In this document: one piece after another, positions 10,583-26,991 of the stretch | How positions within the stretch are numbered: the stretch's first letter is position 1 | Layout: every line of letters begins with the position of its first letter | Virus record (IMG/VR): IMGVR_UViG_3300048691_000224 | Strand: one strand, 5' to 3' | Length of the DNA: 64,000 bases | From: a virus | Lineage: Duplodnaviria > Caudoviricetes | Made by a program: the position numbers and the translations under genes | The notes under the pieces: generated by a model | Told to the model about the DNA's origin: nothing | What the model saw: only the letters and a program-made list of their open reading frames with translations | Databases searched by the model: none

Positions 10583-10876
10583 CTACTTCGATGGGGTTTG
10601 ATTCACCGCATTCAACAGTGATTCTAGCTGGCTAGCGTAAGTCTGCAATTGCACAATTGTGACTCTATACGCAATTACCAACTCTGATACTGAGCTTGTA
10701 GGAGTGATTTTAGCAATTTCTAGGGCGGGGCGGGGTGGCACTACAACCTTGGGTAGATCCAGTGCAACAGGCACTTCAACAACTTGGGTTTCTACTCGAA
10801 CAAACTTAGATTTCGGGAGCGCAAAGCATCCACTGAGTAGTACACACAACACGACGGGTAAAATTATTTTTTCCAT
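10583..10876 (-). CDS. outer-membrane spanin (o-spanin, Rz1-like lipoprotein)
   Basis: Signal peptide with lipobox LSGC, Pro-rich body, overlaps the 3' end of the i-spanin. Confidence 0.8.
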   Translation of the reverse strand: MEKIILPVVLCVLLSGCFALPKSKFVRVETQVVEVPVALDLPKVVVPPRPALEIAKITPTSSVSELVIAYRVTIVQLQTYASQLESLLNAVNQTPSK

Positions 10877-11292
10877 TGTAAGGCCTCTAGGTTTCTTAGC
10901 ACACTAATTGCATCAACACAAGTAAGGGCAATATTTTCATCCTGGCGAATAGTCGCAATCTTGCGGTTGCCATCGACAACCACTCGTTGGTTGGACTTTT
11001 CAGCAGTGGTTACTCTCGTTTGTTGCTCAATAACTTGGGTCTTGAGTTTGTTGACAGCCGCATTTTGGAGTGCTATTGTGTCTCGGAAGCTATCTGCTTG
11101 TTGGGTATTCAACTCTGAAGCAACAATTAAATCTGTTTCTTGTTGTTTAACTTTGACTTCGAGTTTAGATACCACTGATTGTGAGTGTTGCAGCATACCA
11201 TACATGACGATAATGACTATCGAACATACGCCATACCCCCAGGCGGCGAGTGGTACTCGTCTTAATAAAGATACAATTATTGATATACTCAT
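10864..11292 (-). CDS. inner-membrane spanin (i-spanin, Rz-like)
   Basis: N-terminal transmembrane helix then coiled coil; TATAAATA late promoter at 11322-11329. Confidence 0.75.
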   Translation of the reverse strand: MSISIIVSLLRRVPLAAWGYGVCSIVIIVMYGMLQHSQSVVSKLEVKVKQQETDLIVASELNTQQADSFRDTIALQNAAVNKLKTQVIEQQTRVTTAEKSNQRVVVDGNRKIATIRQDENIALTCVDAISVLRNLEALQWKK

Positions 11293-11337
11293 GTGCGTAT
11301 GGCCACTGTTGGTCTGTGGTCTATTTATACAAAAGCG

Positions 11338-12291
11338 TCAAAACGAGAAGTCAGACTCATACGCCTTACTTTGGCGAGTGGGGACTTGTCTGGGAATCGA
11401 ATCGAACATATTATGCAGCATATTGTCAACCAACATACCAACGTGGCGTTGCCTATCAATTTTATCAAAGAATTCATCCTTGAACCACTGAGGAATCATC
11501 TCCTCATCTGTCGGGACAGCAATCGCCTTAAACATACGACCGGCGTGTTCCATTTCATATTTTAGTTTGAAAATCTTAATTTTCATACCACTCGATATTA
11601 ACAGCGACTCAGTATCTCCCGCAGCTTGTCTAAAATCATTATATAAAATTGCTGCTGATACATGGCCGGGTAGGCGTGTAGTTGGGTAGTCTCTAAACGA
11701 GGCTGTGTACTGTTCAATTCCCTTGATACCTTTTGGAAGGCCGAGATCCATTAGATCAATCTCATCAATCATTTCATCACGATATTCCATGATAAAATCA
11801 TCTAGCTCTTCATCAGGGGTTCCTGTAAGCATTTTGTGACACGTAGATCGCAGGAATGCTTTGACGGGGCGGGGGGTCGTAGTCTTGCGCATGTCGACCC
11901 CCATAGCCTTCAGTTCATCCTTGGCCTTGCCTTCTTTGTCGATCACATGGATGACATACCGCTTCTTCTGAATGAAAAATCCTTTATCAGCAACCAATTC
12001 TCTACCAGTTTTAATGTGCTGGTCGAACCCGGGTTGTACCAAGAATGCTGATCGATTGTACGCGGGGAATGAGGCATTGATCTCATGACCTATCTTGTCA
12101 GCAATCTTAACTACAAGGTTTGGATTGGCATTGGGTGGGATTATCTCACTGAGTGAACAATACAAACTGTTGTGCACCAATATACCGTTGGCGAAAAAAT
12201 TATGTACCCCATCAACCTCAATGTCGTACACATCAAGCTCTTGTAGACCCAAATCAATAATTTCAAAATTATCTGTCTCAACTATATTCAT
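11338..12291 (-). CDS. split-intein C fragment (41 aa) fused to the C-terminal part of family-B DNA polymerase
   Basis: VYDIEVDGVHNFFANGILVHN then +1 Ser; followed by PolB motifs KKRY, KAMGVDMRKTTTP, PGHVSAAILYN. Confidence 0.92.
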   Translation of the reverse strand: MNIVETDNFEIIDLGLQELDVYDIEVDGVHNFFANGILVHNSLYCSLSEIIPPNANPNLVVKIADKIGHEINASFPAYNRSAFLVQPGFDQHIKTGRELVADKGFFIQKKRYVIHVIDKEGKAKDELKAMGVDMRKTTTPRPVKAFLRSTCHKMLTGTPDEELDDFIMEYRDEMIDEIDLMDLGLPKGIKGIEQYTASFRDYPTTRLPGHVSAAILYNDFRQAAGDTESLLISSGMKIKIFKLKYEMEHAGRMFKAIAVPTDEEMIPQWFKDEFFDKIDRQRHVGMLVDNMLHNMFDSIPRQVPTRQSKAYESDFSF

Positions 12292-12298
12292 CTATTTT

Positions 12299-13372
12299 TT
12301 ACTCTTCAGGGGGATCACGAGGTGGTAGTTTATATTCTGCACGTATTATGTCAAGCACGTGGCTGGGATCACGATCAAAATCTCGCTCCCACACTACTAT
12401 AGTGCGATAGTTCCGGCTTTGTATGTGGGCAAGTTTTTTAGCGTCTGCGTCCCAACACTGAGATGCGGTTTTTCTGCCTCTACCGCGGAGTGCTTTTGGG
12501 AAGTCGGTTGGACCATATAGCGTTGGATTCCCATGATAGTGATCCCCGTTGAATTCTATACAAATCTTGTGGTTGGTATCAACGTAATCATATTTGTAAA
12601 ATCGTCTACCCAACGGGTCAAATGACCCAAATTCGGTATTTTTTGTGGCGTAATATACGTGCTCATCCGGAAGCTGTAAGTCATTGACTATTAAGTCGAA
12701 CAATACTTGCGACTTTACGGAATAAAAGTTAAATTGATTTGAGAACTTCTCAACCAATTTCTGAGTAGCAAGCTCAATATCCCCATACCGTTGGATATAG
12801 TTGTCAATTGTGTGGGCTTTAGATTTACATAGCGCATCCCATACTACCAACCCCTCATCCACCCCATGCTTGTCCTGGAACCACTGTAGGGATACTCCTG
12901 CAGTTCGTTGCTTCTCGACATAACTGGTCCATCTAAGCAACCCCTCTTGTTCACCATGGCGGGCGATCATTCTTTCTTTAGTCTGCTTTCTGGTTGAGTT
13001 GTATTCATCAAACTGATCGAGGGTCCACCCATGTGTACGCGATTTATACACAAATGTATTTTTTTCAGCCATGAATGCCCGACGTGCGGCCCATTTTGCA
13101 TCTGCGTAAGCGCCGTATGATAATACGTAGCGGTCATATGTGTGGGATAACCCTCCTTTATGCTCAATAACAATCCTCCAATACCGATCAAACATATTAG
13201 GTTCGATCTTATGAATTTCATATTTCAAGAAGTTATACGTAAACTTGTGGTGATTTTTGTTCCCACTATCTTCCAATTGCTTACTCAGTTGCTGGTATTT
13301 AATTAAGTCGATATCTGATATGTCTAGGTTGAATGTAGTTGCTTTATTGCGTAGTGTTCGTAAGGTTAGCAT
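12299..13372 (-). mobile_element. free-standing Vsr/DUF559-like homing endonuclease inside the fractured polymerase gene
   Basis: C-terminal YDYVD...IEFNGDHYH...DAKK...IVVWE; sits exactly between the intein halves; GTAAATA at 13398-13404 upstream. Confidence 0.8.
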
Positions 13373-13374
13373 GT

Positions 13375-15870
13375 TTATGGAGATACAGATTCGGGGGTAT
13401 TTACACTAATCAACTTATCCCCCCTTACTATATTCATCGGTGTTGTGCTTATTATTTCAGTGCCGCGGCGGACTATAATGGAGTGATCAGCTGTTATAGT
13501 AACCGATGCTCCATTTACCCTAACCTCAAACATGCGTTTTTTGACAGTATGTTTCATGACATAATTAATGGGTTTGGTTACTGGGTTGGACCCATCAAAA
13601 CCCACACTCGTTGAGCCGACTACTCGCTTGACATAATTGTTGGTAATCGGGTCGTGTTTTATGAAATCACCTGGCTGCTCCTCGTAAAACTGGGCAATAG
13701 TTTTTTGAATTCCGTTTACATAAATCGCGGTACCCCCAACAACCGAGTCGGTGTCGCCATAGATCAGACATGGGCTTGCAATCTCGTTGTTGATCGCCCG
13801 TGGGTCTTCATCACTAGTAATTGGGTTGATGTTGTAATCTCCATCTATAATTTCACAACCCTTGCGAATTTGGTGCCCGAGTATGCACCTACCTGTTGCA
13901 GTCACTGATTGCCCCATCCGCTTATCATAGAACCGGAAATTTTGATTGAGTAATGCACCGTATGCTGAATTGAGCTTAATTTTCATCGCATATTGCGTCA
14001 TATCTGCGAATTCATACTCTGTCTGCAGTAATGCCGCTTGATGAGCATCAGTCGTTGCTGCTATGGCACCCAATACTTGTTTGGATTGAGCTTGGAATTG
14101 CTTCCTTGTCGAATACCACCTACCGAGTAATGCTGGAATGATGCCTTCAACATCTTGGCGGAAAACTGTACCGTACCCTGAAATGGCATACTTCAGTTCA
14201 ATGAGATGCTCCTTCCACATTCTAGCTGACTTAGTTTCTACTTCCTGAGTTTTTTCCCATCTAAATGTTAATTGGGCGGTTGACCCAGCATTAATCTCAG
14301 TCCACGCAGACTCAAACTCACTGAATTGTCCGATTAACGTCTCGGGTGAAATGTTGACGGTGCGGATTGTATTTGGGTATAGAGAATTTATATCATAACA
14401 AACTATCCAGTTATGCATACCAGTTTGCGGAACTAACACATATGCACCGGCAGCTTGCCCTTGTTCGTCTAGCTGTTTTGTATCAGGGACCCGAACATTT
14501 AACTCGTACCAACAGTAATTATTGATAGCCATCTCTGCAGACCGGACAGTACCCACAATGTTTTTGAAATGGCACGTAGATTCATGAATTAGTGTATTAG
14601 CTAAATTTATAAATTTATACTTCTTATCTAACTCTCGAAGAATTTCAGTGTCACGGCAATTGTACCTCACAAACTTACTAAAGTTGTTGTTGTACAGATG
14701 GTGCAGAGTGCCTTCGTAATCCAACTTCTTGAATCGCTCGCCGAGATGGTCCTGGGAAACAGTTTCCAAGTTCCACGAGTCTCGATCCTCGACTGTAAAC
14801 TTCTTGAATAACTCCATGTAGTCGAGTGTGACGCGGCCATCAAACTGAACAAATAATTGCTCTTGGAAGAATACTTCTTTGGTCTGGAACCACGGCGCTT
14901 TACCTTTTGGAAATGACAGCATCTGCAACCACTCTTTGCCTAACACAATCTCCACTCGTTTAGCGAAGTATGGATCATCAAATCGTGAGGAGTTCCAACC
15001 AGACAACAAATCTGATTGTTGAATTTCCTCAACGGACCGAGTGAGTAGCTCAGTCTCATTTTTACAGAACACAATTGTAACCTTGGAATCAATATCTTCA
15101 AATAAACTGTAGTCAAACAGTTCTTCGACATTGCATCCTGTCCAGGACTTGGGTGGGACAGAAAAGATGACGTACTCGTCTTTCCAGGTGTGGTAGAACG
15201 CAATTGAGTTTAGTGGTGCGTATGGATCGAGTGGTGAGCTGAAACCGATTGGCCCATCGTATGTGTACAATGAATTTTTAACCGCCACCCACTTCTTTAC
15301 CGGCTCATCCCACACCTCAACATCAGGATCGCTCCTATAATCGCGAAGGTCCCAAACTGTAGCTTCGAAGGATTCTGAACCAATATTGCGAAGTTTGATT
15401 TTATGGTCCGCGTCGTACTTTTTGGGCCGGTAATCTACCTCGATGTCATAGTATGTTGTGTTGATGTGAGGCAATTCACATTTATAATACAGCGCACTCA
15501 GCGCCTTTAGTTCAGGTGGAATGTCGCTCTCAAATAAATCAACATCGATTGGTTTGCTATCTAGAAACTTCGACATCTCCTTCTTATTTGAGAATTCTAG
15601 TTCATACAAATCATCACCAAACATTGATTGATATTTGGTAGTTTCATCAATTGCAGTAGTACCAAGCCCCAGAAACTTTTTTAACACTCCATCAGGCGTT
15701 CCTTCTTCTACCGAATCACTAAACTCAGCGTGGGTTGAGTACCAGTCGCTACACTTGATGTAGCAATTGTACAGCGCCCTGACTGTCTTAATCGTCGGGG
15801 CGTGGTTAGGTGTCAGGCGTTGTTCCCAGATGGTTACGTGATCGAAGTGTCTACTAGCTGCAATGTACAT
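13375..15870 (-). CDS. family-B DNA polymerase N-terminal part (gp43-like) fused to split-intein N fragment (123 aa)
   Basis: Exonuclease motifs YDIEV and GWNSSRFD; YDINSLYP, KIKLNSAYG, YGDTD; then SVVGGTAIYV...VTITADHSIIV intein blocks A and B from 13746. Confidence 0.95.
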   Translation of the reverse strand: MYIAASRHFDHVTIWEQRLTPNHAPTIKTVRALYNCYIKCSDWYSTHAEFSDSVEEGTPDGVLKKFLGLGTTAIDETTKYQSMFGDDLYELEFSNKKEMSKFLDSKPIDVDLFESDIPPELKALSALYYKCELPHINTTYYDIEVDYRPKKYDADHKIKLRNIGSESFEATVWDLRDYRSDPDVEVWDEPVKKWVAVKNSLYTYDGPIGFSSPLDPYAPLNSIAFYHTWKDEYVIFSVPPKSWTGCNVEELFDYSLFEDIDSKVTIVFCKNETELLTRSVEEIQQSDLLSGWNSSRFDDPYFAKRVEIVLGKEWLQMLSFPKGKAPWFQTKEVFFQEQLFVQFDGRVTLDYMELFKKFTVEDRDSWNLETVSQDHLGERFKKLDYEGTLHHLYNNNFSKFVRYNCRDTEILRELDKKYKFINLANTLIHESTCHFKNIVGTVRSAEMAINNYCWYELNVRVPDTKQLDEQGQAAGAYVLVPQTGMHNWIVCYDINSLYPNTIRTVNISPETLIGQFSEFESAWTEINAGSTAQLTFRWEKTQEVETKSARMWKEHLIELKYAISGYGTVFRQDVEGIIPALLGRWYSTRKQFQAQSKQVLGAIAATTDAHQAALLQTEYEFADMTQYAMKIKLNSAYGALLNQNFRFYDKRMGQSVTATGRCILGHQIRKGCEIIDGDYNINPITSDEDPRAINNEIASPCLIYGDTDSVVGGTAIYVNGIQKTIAQFYEEQPGDFIKHDPITNNYVKRVVGSTSVGFDGSNPVTKPINYVMKHTVKKRMFEVRVNGASVTITADHSIIVRRGTEIISTTPMNIVRGDKLISVNTPESVSP

Positions 15871-15904
15871 TGATTTGGGTGTTTTGTATACTAAGAAAAG
15901 ATAA

Positions 15905-15931
15905 AACTCACCTAATATTATCAGGTGAGTT
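15905..15931 (-). terminator. probable intrinsic terminator after queD
   Basis: 9-bp stem AACTCACCT/AGGTGAGTT followed on the minus strand by TTATCTTTT. Confidence 0.55.
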
Positions 15932-15959
15932 GTGAGTTGTTAGCTAGATTGTAGTAGGA

Positions 15960-16475
15960 TTAAAATTCAGAGAGTAGATCTTCATTCCACTCTCTGTGAC
16001 CTTCCCGAAAGGCCATATTCGCTTGTGTTTCACGGACCTCAACTTTATAGCACCAGAGCCGCTCAGCTTCGCTTTGCCCCAACATGTCGGGAATGTAAAC
16101 GCCATTGACGTATTTGTATAACATGTCTGCCAATCCTTCACAGCCCAATCTAGGGAGGATCGTTAGCTTAGCAATGCCTGCACTCTGCATTGCTTCATAG
16201 AGCGTAATATATGGATCATCCTGGGCGACTAGTAGTGTATGGTCAAATTGATCTGCCAAAACTTGTTTTAATTCTTTGAGGCCGCCATAGTCACAAACCC
16301 AGTTTCTTTTGTCAAGATCATTTGTACCGAAGTAAAACTTCATTGAAAAACAGTACCCGTGTACAGTGTTGCACCAGGTGTCTGATTTCCACTGGCGATA
16401 TGCACACGGGAATGCGTCAACGTACTCTTTTGTGGATGTGAATTTGTATGCGATTGGCTGATGTTGTGGGGTCAT
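15960..16475 (-). CDS. queD: 6-carboxy-5,6,7,8-tetrahydropterin synthase
   Basis: CAYRQW...CNTVHGY, NWVCDYGGLKELK, FDHTLL, GCEGLA motifs. Confidence 0.85.
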   Translation of the reverse strand: MTPQHQPIAYKFTSTKEYVDAFPCAYRQWKSDTWCNTVHGYCFSMKFYFGTNDLDKRNWVCDYGGLKELKQVLADQFDHTLLVAQDDPYITLYEAMQSAGIAKLTILPRLGCEGLADMLYKYVNGVYIPDMLGQSEAERLWCYKVEVRETQANMAFREGHREWNEDLLSEF

Positions 16476-17437
16476 TGTAATCTTTCTGTAGTATAGTTAA
16501 TAAATTCGCTCAGAACTTCTACTGTTTGTTGCTCCGTGAAGTCAGATCGGACGACAAAGACTTTGTACCCTCGATCTTCAGCCATTTGTATTTTAGCTTG
16601 GTCTTTTGAATATTTTTGTGCATATGTCATGCCAGTTATCTCCATCAGCTCATCAGGAAATTCCTCAGCTTGCTGTTTAGTTGGGTGCCACCGAAATCCA
16701 TCATACTCTAAAATTGATTTGGCTTCACGTACACAGAAATCATAAAAATTAACACCACTCTTAGAACTCAAAAACCACTCACATTTGGATTTGTCGGAGG
16801 AACTTCTGTAATACAGCGAGTAATTTAATAGCCATGGATTTTCCAACAACACTCGATCGATTAGTATTTCAGCTTCCTTCGAATGGCCGATAGACTTGAA
16901 AATTTTCTGGAGGTAACGGGCGTATAATTCGTGACCAAGCTCACCATGCTTGTCGATGTAAATTTGGAGCTTTGTTTTATTACCATATCGCTCTTTTTTG
17001 GTTGCGGATGATTTCGCAGCTCTCGTCGTGATGTGGTATTGCCGTTCTGTCTCAGATAGATTGGACCAATACTTATCAATAGCAGCTTTTCGTTTTGCAT
17101 GCATTGCATCTACCGCAACCTCTCCACCACTTGCTCGGACTAGAGCGACAGTGTTCTTCTTAGCGACAGTGTCCTGCCATTTTTTTCTACCTAACTCTTC
17201 ACCCCACCTAGCAATCATATTTTCTTCCGACTGCCTGGATTTATTCACATGATTATTAAATCTAGTTAAACCATCTAGTGGATATCTCCACACAAACCAC
17301 TCCTTGGTTAGTCGTGTATACGGGTGAGTGGCGTAAGTTTGTGCTCGTATAGCCAATCGCCGTTGGGTAGCCTCAAATTTCTCAACCCCTCGATCGTTAC
17401 CATATTTATCGATGTAGTCTTGTACCGTCATTACCAT
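16472..17437 (-). mobile_element. free-standing Vsr-like homing endonuclease, paralogue of 12299..13372
   Basis: FYDF...ILEYDGFRWH...KDQAK...GYKVFVV; shared ENMIARWGEELG / ERMIARHGEQEG repeat motif. Confidence 0.7.
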
Positions 17438-24069: not shown

Positions 24070-24927
24070 TTAATTCACAACCAAATTAGTGAGATATTTA
24101 TGCAGATCAGGCAGTCCGCCAATGGAGGTGCCATCAGGGCACACTATTTGCGGGAAGCTTCGAGCGCTTGGAAACTTCTCACTAAAGTCATCACGCGTGA
24201 AGTCAACATCCAACATCTTGGTTATAAATTGTTTATCCTTGTTTGTCAGTAGCGCTTTAGCTTGATCGCACTGTGGACAGCCGGGTTTGGAATATACAGT
24301 AAATTCTGGAATTCCAACATATCGATCTGCTGAACCAAACATTGGAGCATCATCACCGCTGTATTGGCCCCAGACGTCATCCCAATCACCCTCTGTAGCA
24401 CCTTTGGAATACTCAAATACTTTTTGTTCGAAAAAGTTTCCGTGAGTTACGCTATCAATCATCTGCTCTACCCATGGTAGCGGATTCTTTTTAATTTTGA
24501 ATATCCCCTTTAATCCAAGGGCGATCAATCGGCGATCTGCAATGTACCTAATATACAACTTCACATCAGCTGCCGTAAGGTCTTTCATTTCACCCATCTC
24601 AAACGCGAGATCGATAAACTTATCCTCCAAATCAACCATGCGCTCTGCAATTGTATAGAGTTGACTCTTCAGGCTATCTTTCCAGATGTGTCGATTTTCC
24701 TCAATAAACACACGGAACAACTTAATCATAGCGTCTGTATGACAATTACCAGAAATGGATAGTGTGTTAGCATGTCTAATTTGAAACGCTGTACCAGGGA
24801 CGCTGAGACAAAACACTTCTGTTGACTGAAGTTCTTTGGTCACTTGTACTGCTGATTTGGGGATCGGTGGTAAGCTACCAGCAATCGCCTGAAGCATATT
24901 GATAATATCCGTATTTGTTTTATTCAT
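24070..24927 (-). CDS. nrdB: split-intein C fragment fused to the C-terminal part of ribonucleotide reductase beta, with a C-terminal glutaredoxin domain
   Basis: VFCLSVPGTAFQIRH...ISGN then +1 Cys (CHTDAMIKLF); YIRYIADRRL, NPLPW, NFFE; then YSKPGCPQC and SFPQI. Confidence 0.9.
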   Translation of the reverse strand: MNKTNTDIINMLQAIAGSLPPIPKSAVQVTKELQSTEVFCLSVPGTAFQIRHANTLSISGNCHTDAMIKLFRVFIEENRHIWKDSLKSQLYTIAERMVDLEDKFIDLAFEMGEMKDLTAADVKLYIRYIADRRLIALGLKGIFKIKKNPLPWVEQMIDSVTHGNFFEQKVFEYSKGATEGDWDDVWGQYSGDDAPMFGSADRYVGIPEFTVYSKPGCPQCDQAKALLTNKDKQFITKMLDVDFTRDDFSEKFPSARSFPQIVCPDGTSIGGLPDLHKYLTNLVVN

Positions 24928-25879
24928 TTGTTGTATTCTGAGCACTAGTTAATGTTTTTGCGCGAGCCGCTGCTGCAGCGGCTAGCAGTTTGTCAATGTG
25001 TTTTATGGTTCTACCTAATTTCCACCCAGTTGGTATCTCAGCTAGCCTACCAATAGTTTTAGATTCAGTGCCGTTGGTTATCCACTGCTTATCGCGCTTC
25101 TTTTGGGTCATCCCAGCCCAGAATCCAATTGGAGGATCTATATTAGGCTGAAGCTTCAGATTGGTTGTGCCATCTGTATAGCAAATTACACCCCTAATAT
25201 TTGGGTGATTTGATACTTGCATCCTTTGGGCAGCAGTACGGATTTGGGGTGGGGGTGGATGTTTACCAAATCTCCACCCAACTGGTAGTTGGGCTGTTTT
25301 TAGCATTTGTGTCGACGTTGTACCATCAGTAATCCACCTAAACTTCCCTACTCGAGTTGCTGAGGCCTTGCGCCTAATCTCTATTGCTTCTTCAGTATAC
25401 ACTCGTCCTGTGTTGTTGGGAATACTATGTGGGTGGTCTTGCAACCGCTTGATGTTGCGCCTAGTCACACATTCTAGTTCATCCGCCGAATAGTAACTAC
25501 CACCATTTAATAATCGCCGGGCAGCAGATGTTTTTGCACGCGTAGCGGTAGCTTTTGACCTTGCGGTTTGACGCACATAATCAGGTACACCCGCTAGTGT
25601 GTCTCCACCTTGGCCACCTATTGCTATGTTGTAGGTATCATCCCTTGATACAAAATTAACGTCAACTAGTTGACGTTCTACAGCTCGAGCTTCGTCCCAA
25701 GTGTCACACTCATGCAATGTGATTCTCACAAAGTTATCTCTACCATATTTTTCGACGGCCCTAGCTAACAATATACCCGAACCCAAATACCCATCAAATT
25801 GATCGGCAAACTGCTTGTGGATCCCCACATATATGCGATCATTGATTACGTTAGTTGTCTGGTACACGATATAATTCAT
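24920..25879 (-). mobile_element. GIY-YIG (Seg-like) homing endonuclease inside the fractured nrdB gene
   Basis: YIVYQTTNVINDRIYVGIH...YLGSG; NUMOD-like WITDG / GW..GR repeats. Confidence 0.88.
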
Positions 25880-25893
25880 TCAGATTCAAGATG

Positions 25894-25933
25894 TTACGTG
25901 GTACCATATTTATGTCTTCGTTGTACCACGTAA
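25894..25933 (-). promoter_or_regulatory. late promoter CATAAATA (25907-25914) in the loop of an 11-bp hairpin upstream of the GIY-YIG gene
   Basis: TTACGTGGTAC (25894-25904) / GTACCACGTAA (25923-25933) perfect inverted repeat. Confidence 0.7.
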
Positions 25934-25941
25934 TATTCTCT

Positions 25942-26991
25942 TCAGCTCATGTACTCTAGTAGAAATTCCTTCGCCCACGATGAGTCCATTATTGGGAGCA
26001 GTGGCAATACCCACTCCAAAGACAATACACCTTCTTTGGTGAGTCTACACAATTCCTTATGCTTGTCTGTCAATACTTTCAAGGAGCCACTCTTAGTGCC
26101 CGAGCACACGTAACTAAACTCCTCAGTTACAGATTCAATATCCTTCGCCTGAACGTCCTGTATCCGACCATCACCCATCTCTAAAATCATTCTATGATTT
26201 GGTGATACTGATTGTGAGAAACCTTCACCCTTAAAATGGTACACTGTCGGTACTGTTTTCTTGGTAAGATTGGTTGGAGTCACAAAATTAGTCTGACTGG
26301 TTTCGGTATCATACTCTAACAGTTCAGTAGATAGTGTGACACATTCGATAGGTAACCACCCATCTAGTGTCATAACTTCTGTGCCGGCAACCAAACACTT
26401 CTCATCAAGGATCGACCAAGAGATGTTTGAGCCCATTCCAACCATCGTTCCGTGACGGGGGAAGTTCAATAACATGATGAATGATGAAAATAATTGCATA
26501 CCTTCAGTGAATGCTGAGAATACTGCTAGCTGTTGAGCAATGGACTCGGTGTCAGTTCCGATAAAATTCTCAACATATTCGTATTTTTCACGCATCGCAT
26601 CATATTCTAAGAACTGATTGTAGATTGTGTCAGGCATTCCTAGCGTTTCCACTAGGTTAGAGTATGCTGCAATATGAGTAGCTTCACGAGCCGCAAAACT
26701 TAACAACATCATCCGAACTTCTGGTTGGGGAAATACCGGTAGATAATTCATCACATATGCATTTGCTACACTGATGTCACCTTGAGTGAAAAATCTGAAG
26801 ATGTGGGTCAAGAAGTTTTGTTCAGACTGTGTTAATTTGGTGTTCCAATCTTTAACATCCTCCAGGAGAGGGGCCTCCCAGTGACCCCAATGCATGCGTT
26901 CGTGATCCATCCACGTTTCGTAGCACCACTGGTAGTTGAATGGCTTGTACGATGGACGTGGGTCTGTTAATTTTAATTTCTTTTTGGACAT
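25942..26991 (-). CDS. nrdB: ribonucleotide reductase beta N-terminal part fused to split-intein N fragment (151 aa)
   Basis: FFTQGD, REATH, FTEGMQLFSSF, WSILDEK; then CLVAGTEVMTLDGW...VSPNHRM intein blocks from 26397. Confidence 0.92.
   Translation of the reverse strand: MSKKKLKLTDPRPSYKPFNYQWCYETWMDHERMHWGHWEAPLLEDVKDWNTKLTQSEQNFLTHIFRFFTQGDISVANAYVMNYLPVFPQPEVRMMLLSFAAREATHIAAYSNLVETLGMPDTIYNQFLEYDAMREKYEYVENFIGTDTESIAQQLAVFSAFTEGMQLFSSFIMLLNFPRHGTMVGMGSNISWSILDEKCLVAGTEVMTLDGWLPIECVTLSTELLEYDTETSQTNFVTPTNLTKKTVPTVYHFKGEGFSQSVSPNHRMILEMGDGRIQDVQAKDIESVTEEFSYVCSGTKSGSLKVLTDKHKELCRLTKEGVLSLEWVLPLLPIMDSSWAKEFLLEYMS

Follow-up and report, generated by a model that had tools for sequence, protein, structure and literature searches.

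A phage family-B DNA polymerase gene fractured inside catalytic motif C, with split-intein halves at the break and a Vsr-like endonuclease gene between them

Background

The PolB1 intein of phage Aes123, which is split in nature (120 + 39 amino acids, aa) and free of cysteine, is located in the family-B DNA polymerase (PolB) of T4-like Aeromonas phages. It trans-splices, it has been engineered into the ligation tools CL and CLm, and a crystal structure of its fused halves is available (PDB 9HTH). GenBank annotations in Aeromonas phages describe a PolB broken at DTD/S (the slash marks the break), with a Ser1 split intein and a VSR-like endonuclease. A split PolB has also been published for the Pseudomonas jumbo phages MIJ3 and PA5oct (Imam et al. 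2019, PMC6892783), and three other cysteine-less split inteins, CP21 PolB1, LCGC14 PolB2 and GOM-OPS-1 PolB2, were mined from databases and tested as tools (PMC12707363). Here we describe a polB locus of this kind in the IMG/VR virus record IMGVR_UViG_3300048691_000224, a 64,000-nt stretch of DNA from a large phage that is referred to below as the window. The locus is a minus-strand array of three open reading frames (ORFs) at 11338-15870. In the mechanism that we favor, with a probability of about 0.9, the split PolB is rejoined by protein trans-splicing and the cassette that breaks it is spread by a homing endonuclease.

Split inteins accompanied by a free-standing Vsr-like endonuclease, as in the window, were described as fractured genes by Dassa et al. 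2009 (PMC2677866). The host genes named in the list retrieved from that paper were DnaE, gp41, NrdA, NrdJ, IMPDH, ligase and terminase, with no family-B polymerase among them.

Results and discussion

Structure of the polB locus

The coordinates of the three ORFs and their parts are listed in Table 1. The N gene product reaches its YGDTD at residue 708 (...SPCLIYGDTD) and continues for another 123 residues (SVVGGTAIYV...TADHS...), and the first 41 residues of the C gene product end in ...NGILVHN and are followed directly by SLYCSL. Only 2 nt (13373-13374) separate the N gene from the endonuclease ORF and 7 nt (12292-12298) separate the latter from the C gene. Pfam domains DNA_pol_B_exo1 and DNA_pol_B were found in the N gene, and DNA_pol_B together with the end of Intein_splicing in the C gene. 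The PHROG 262 polymerase profile, which has 856 positions, was divided between the two genes, with positions 53-583 falling to the N gene and positions 582-845 to the C gene. When the exteins were joined in silico (residues 1-708 of the N gene product to residues 42-317 of the C gene product), the resulting 984-aa protein aligned with the uninterrupted PolB of phages XacN1, RsoM2USA and Xoo-sp13 as a single high-scoring segment pair (E values 1e-175 to 1e-168). The junction was gapless, with YGDTD/S in the window and in all three intact polymerases, and the break point falls inside the catalytic motif C of PolB.

The locus therefore has both features of a fractured gene: two adjacent ORFs on the same strand whose products are jointly colinear with an intact PolB, and split-intein halves at the break with a free-standing endonuclease ORF in between. 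The three-ORF split-PolB arrangement is confirmed as real, far beyond chance. A sequence-only reading of the window had proposed these ORF coordinates and gaps, the intein parts of 123 and 41 aa, the VHN/SLYCSL boundary, the rebuilding of a 984-aa PolB and the likeness to fractured genes. The coordinates and boundaries were all recovered from the sequence; the rebuilding agrees with the alignment to intact polymerases, and the likeness with the layout and with the intact, insert-less polB of close relatives (see below).

The host polymerase shares 37-40% identity with its counterparts in the jumbo phages RsoM2USA, XacN1, CM1 and Xoo-sp13, and baseplate and ribonucleotide-reductase genes are also present in the window. 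A megablast search of the 4.5-kb region against phage records gave no match. An identical endonuclease is present on a public contig of 221 kb.

Table 1. Coordinates of the polB locus and of other features in the window
Feature	Position	Strand	Details
polB N gene (PolB N-part + intein-N)	13375-15870	-	831 aa = 708 + 123 aa
PolB N-extein	13747-15870	-	708 aa; exonuclease domain, polymerase motifs up to motif C; ends ...LIYGDTD
Intein-N and stop codon (13375-13377)	13375-13746	-	123 aa; match to PDB 9HTH
Endonuclease ORF	12299-13372	-	357 aa, free-standing
Endonuclease domains	12299-13372	-	predicted helical N-terminal region (about residues 1-215); predicted C-terminal Vsr-like/EDxHD nuclease domain (residues 216-352, window 12317-12727)
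polB C gene (intein-C + PolB C-part)	11338-12291	-	317 aa = 41 + 276 aa
Intein-C	12169-12291	-	41 aa; Pfam Intein_splicing
PolB C-extein and stop codon	11338-12168	-	276 aa; begins with Ser+1 (SLYCSL)
Terminator-like hairpin after queD	15905-15931	-	about 35 nt upstream of the polB N gene; 12-pair stem, then a T run
nrdB N-part + CLVAGTEV...	25942-26991	-	Ribonuc_red_sm profile 4-193; CLVAGTEV... taken as Cys1 intein-N in the sequence-only reading
GIY-YIG ORF inside nrdB	24920-25879	-
nrdB C-part fused to glutaredoxin	24070-24945	-	Ribonuc_red_sm profile 193-281

The split intein

Intein-N begins with Ser1, encoded at 13744-13746, and contains the NX motif Lys65-His66 and the block B residues Thr85-x-x-His88 (TADH). 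Intein-C contains Asp23 of block F (VYD) and His40-Asn41 of block G, after which the extein begins with Ser+1. Neither half contains a cysteine, and all of the residues used in class 1 Ser1/Ser+1 (cysteine-less) splicing are present, placing the intein in this class. An NX motif of the form (K/R)-His has been reported to be specific to Ser1 inteins.

A PDB sequence search with intein-N produced one strong match, 9hth (E value 1.5e-26), the sequence of which is that of GenBank JN377899 except for Ser1Ala, over 118 aligned residues. The splicing residues of intein-N are invariant across the window, Aes123 and PA5oct, and the DTD/S insertion point is common to all three; the window copy is an allele of the Aes123 PolB1 type. 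Intein-C matched positions 124-155 of the 155 in the Pfam Intein_splicing profile with an E value of 7e-6, a match that falls short of the curated cutoff. Homology to an intein that is solved and trans-splices, along with the full set of residues, upholds the earlier identification of a Ser1/Ser+1 split intein at YGDTD/S. Association of the two halves is also predicted: complex prediction for intein-N with intein-C gave a score of 0.76 compared to 0.02 for the best control, a mark attained by 51 of 78 solved complexes and two of 108 mismatched pairs. Since a like intein complex has already been solved, this score may reflect the predictor's exposure to solved intein structures and indicates likeness rather than independent proof.

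The closest described loci are those of Aes123 and Aes508 (GenBank JN377899 and JN377894), T4-like phages of A. salmonicida. They share with the window the DTD/S site, the Ser1/Ser+1 cysteine-less chemistry, a similar split (120 + 39 aa in Aes123, 123 + 41 aa in the window) and a homologous VSR-like endonuclease between the halves, with the ORFs tightly packed or overlapping. Identity between the window and Aes123 is 44% for intein-N, 69% for intein-C and 34% for the endonuclease. The window differs in having a host polymerase of the jumbo-phage type rather than the T4 type; the additional gp43A/B break further upstream and the group I intron that are seen in the Aeromonas phages are both missing. 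The MIJ3 and PA5oct loci likewise have a DTD/S break, a homologous Ser1/Ser+1 split intein and an endonuclease gene between the halves, but their endonuclease is a 560-aa Hef-like protein without significant pairwise similarity to that of the window, and their exteins are about 31-33% identical. The CP21, LCGC14 and GOM-OPS-1 inteins, located in PolB from phages or metagenomes, are related to the Aes intein, and the window copy is not in that set; the Campylobacter CP21 locus matches both intein-N and the endonuclease of the window. The sequence-only reading had presented the intein as a new ligation-tool candidate, which overstates the case given that Aes123 PolB1 already exists as CL and CLm and that the CP21, LCGC14 and GOM-OPS-1 relatives have been tested.

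Retention of splicing residues bears on whether the two polymerase fragments need to be joined at all. The intein halves could conceivably serve as a non-covalent docking module, so that the PolB fragments act as a heterodimer without a peptide bond, as in the split gp43 of T4-like phages; an intein-less split of polB into gp43A and gp43B is indeed tolerated in the related phages Aes123 and Aes508 and in two further relatives (L015 and L017). We consider docking alone very unlikely at this locus, where the break lies inside catalytic motif C, where every splicing residue is retained, including the NX histidine that is relevant only to Ser1 chemistry, and where the homologous Aes123 intein does splice.

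The endonuclease ORF

The protein encoded between the intein halves matched PHROG 22677 (E value 6.5e-47) and has 33-34% identity to the "putative VSR endonuclease" found between the intein halves of Aes123, Aes508 and related phages. Further matches were to equivalently placed ORFs in Campylobacter CP21-type phages, Vibrio VPALA, Lak megaphages and others. No match was found by Pfam or by a single-sequence PDB search, and a profile built from the homologues ranked Vsr first among PDB entries with an E value of only 0.13, aligning D262, H280 and D310 with D51, H69 and D97 of Vsr. An AlphaFold (AF2) model built from an alignment of 49 homologues had a mean predicted local distance difference test score (pLDDT) of 92.9. 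Plain Foldseek with this model gave weak E values (3r3p, E value 0.13, probability 0.99) because of the large helical N-terminal domain. When residues 216-352 of the model were submitted to VIA-align, the top matches were Vsr (1cw0, Z 10.8; 1vsr, Z 10.0) and I-Bth0305I (3r3p, Z 10.0), and 97 of 97 residues of 3r3p could be superposed with a root-mean-square deviation of 2.6.

The residues E247, D262, H280 and an extra acid, E273, are invariant in all 49 homologues, N275 is found in 46 of the 49, and position 310 is D or E in every one. The EDxHD signature and the roles of its catalytic residues were described for the I-Bth0305I family (PMC3239194). The VIA-align matches together with this conservation indicate that the C-terminal domain has a predicted Vsr-type nuclease fold in which the EDxHD catalytic residues are kept, consistent with the Vsr-like nuclease that had been proposed from the sequence. 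I-Bth0305I, the EDxHD prototype (Taylor et al. 2011, PMC3239194; PDB 3R3P), shares the catalytic-domain fold and residues with the window endonuclease but is encoded in a recA intron, whereas the window gene is a free-standing ORF.

Residues 1-215 are confidently modeled as helical and contain a repeated G-x-x-E-G...W...Y..KQ module. With regard to a modular DNA-binding region (NUMOD/HTH) at this end of the protein, Pfam HTH_59 was detected in two of the homologues and gave no match to the window protein itself. A public gene call of this endonuclease is a shorter form of 325 aa. We regard the long start at 13372 as real because residues 1-35 from this start are conserved in both of the closest homologues and are confidently modeled.

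Relatives with and without the cassette

Synteny with the window across folE, queD, polB and the next three genes is seen in four metagenomic viral contigs (L009-L012). Their polB is intact, encodes 1001 aa (...AGDTDSGYV...) and contains neither intein nor endonuclease; the protein is 80% identical to the joined exteins and 77% identical to the N-extein. A more distant and independent contig from another sample (L008) carries the same three-ORF cassette. Identity between the window and L008 is 58-66% for the exteins, 70% for intein-N, 76% for the endonuclease and 80% for intein-C. Nonsynonymous divergence (pN) between these two is 0.17 for intein-N, 0.14 for the endonuclease and 0.11 for intein-C, and synonymous divergence (pS) is 0.70-0.81, near saturation. 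The low pN relative to pS indicates that all three parts of the cassette are under purifying selection. Because synonymous sites are saturated, the time of any cassette transfer is not estimable.

These comparisons can be read in another way, with the endonuclease as a fixed passenger that is inactive or repurposed and no longer drives homing, and with the cassette inherited vertically. Synonymous saturation between the two cassette-bearing genomes, so that no recent transfer is demonstrable, would fit such a history, as would flanking exteins that carry no donor signal. We judge it unlikely, given an endonuclease ORF that is full length with catalytic residues intact and invariant, an endonuclease pN of 0.14 compared to a pS of 0.81, cassette proteins that are more alike (70-80%) than the exteins around them, and syntenic relatives from which the cassette is missing. 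An endonuclease that drives homing remains the reading we prefer.

The window PolB is more than 90% identical to the empty-site polymerase of L009 except in a stretch around the insertion point, residues 481-760 of the spliced product (window 13591-14430 and 12013-12168, minus strand), where identity is 38-60%. A co-conversion tract, in which this stretch was imported with the cassette, was considered and is not supported, since L008, which has the cassette, is no closer to the window in this stretch. It may be a fast-evolving segment of PolB.

A free-standing paralogue of the polB endonuclease (E value 6e-9) was observed at 16472-17437 on the minus strand, between queD and folE, which encodes GTP cyclohydrolase I. 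It belongs to PHROG 22677 and has a weak DUF559 match. The paralogue is missing in L009-L012, where folE and queD are spaced by only about 110-160 nt.

Homologous contiguous mini-inteins were seen in Salicola phage SCTP-2 (L002) and in the relatives L015 (9318-10991) and L017 (7449-8927), two codons upstream of the window site. Their site is YGD/S...(K or H)N/TDS with Thr+1, as compared to YGDTD/S with Ser+1 in the window. Because each Asp of D-T-D-S is followed by a hydroxyl residue, a slipped alignment on the quasi-repeated GAY-ACN/GAY-AGY codons is conceivable, and we speculate that the site shift might have arisen in this way. In L015 (5872-10991) and L017 (5869-8927), polB is additionally broken upstream into gp43A and gp43B without an intein. 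The L015 break was made by a gene for a 630-aa Hef-like endonuclease, so that this polB carries an endonuclease break and, separately, a mini-intein; the L017 break is a bare stop/start overlap.

Expression of the three ORFs

The terminator-like hairpin after queD (Table 1) is a strong one, with a fold z-score of -3.05, and no comparable signal was found between the three ORFs, which suggests a single transcript. It is likely that the polB N gene, the endonuclease gene and the polB C gene form one transcription unit beginning after this hairpin. Sigma-70-like sites occurred at chance level (18 observed compared to 13.4 +/- 4). One such site, TTGACA, 16 nt, TAAACT, was noted at 12327-12354 (minus strand), within the 3'-terminal part of the endonuclease ORF and some 35 nt ahead of the C gene start; it could be a promoter of the C half's own, with the proviso that matches of this type are no commoner here than expected by chance. 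The T4-late-promoter-like sequence TATAAATA was absent from the three-ORF unit. A copy was seen directly past the polB C gene at 11322-11329 (minus strand), upstream of the ORF at 10864-11292, and the window contains six copies compared to 2.9 expected.

If the middle ORF were removed as an RNA intron, or if the break were an assembly or sequencing artefact, no protein splicing would be called for. A group I intron is in fact annotated at this locus in the polB of some Aeromonas phages (Aes508). An Rfam search of 11000-16200 (E value of 1 or less) found no RNA intron family in the window and only a lone weak snoRNA match, irrelevant and outside the genes. The intein halves are moreover conserved at the protein level, with stop and start codons of their own, and the same layout on the independent L008 contig and in isolated phages argues against an artefact. 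We give explanations of this kind almost no weight.

Proposed mechanism

The feature is very probably functional. In the trans-splicing and homing mechanism that we favor, a mobile cassette of 1,578 nt (12169-13746), consisting of intein-N, a free-standing gene for an EDxHD (Vsr-like) homing endonuclease and intein-C, would have inserted between the Asp and Ser codons of YGDTD/S in the family-B polymerase gene of a large myovirus-type phage. The three closely spaced ORFs would probably be co-transcribed and separately translated, and the polymerase fragments would be brought together via the intein halves. Class 1 splicing via oxygen esters would then proceed by an N-O shift at Ser1, attack by Ser+1 and cyclisation of Asn41, giving a 984-aa polymerase with motif C restored. 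By analogy with I-Bth0305I, the endonuclease may cut insert-less polB alleles near the DTDS codons, and repair of the cut allele would copy the cassette in, which constitutes homing.

Several observations weigh against this mechanism. The published splicing efficiency of the wild-type Aes123 intein in vitro is only about 30%, so homology to it does not guarantee efficient splicing of the window intein. No clear Shine-Dalgarno sequence was found upstream of the endonuclease gene or the N gene. A regulatory hairpin or occluded ribosome-binding site of the type described by Dassa et al. was also not found, and the starts of the endonuclease and C genes fold no better than shuffled sequences (z-scores -0.8 and +0.95). 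The earlier statement that replication depends on splicing went too far, as the rest of the genome could hold another polymerase.

A second fractured gene in the window

The nrdB gene is also broken, at 24070-26991 on the minus strand, into two parts with a GIY-YIG ORF inside (Table 1). The Pfam coverage of the two nrdB parts meets exactly at position 193 of the Ribonuc_red_sm profile.

Conclusions

The window locus is a further example of a known arrangement, one that in Aeromonas phages has already been described, solved and used as a ligation tool, and it leaves current understanding unchanged. Particular to this copy are the jumbo-type host polymerase, the divergence from the reference intein and the existence of natural empty-site alleles. 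It adds a natural cysteine-less split intein to a family that is being actively mined by protein chemists. Since the window also holds the fractured nrdB and a paralogue of the endonuclease, this phage is a compact example of homing endonucleases breaking essential replication genes. With the site occupied in one phage and naturally empty in its syntenic relatives, homing of the cassette between jumbo phages would be open to a direct test.

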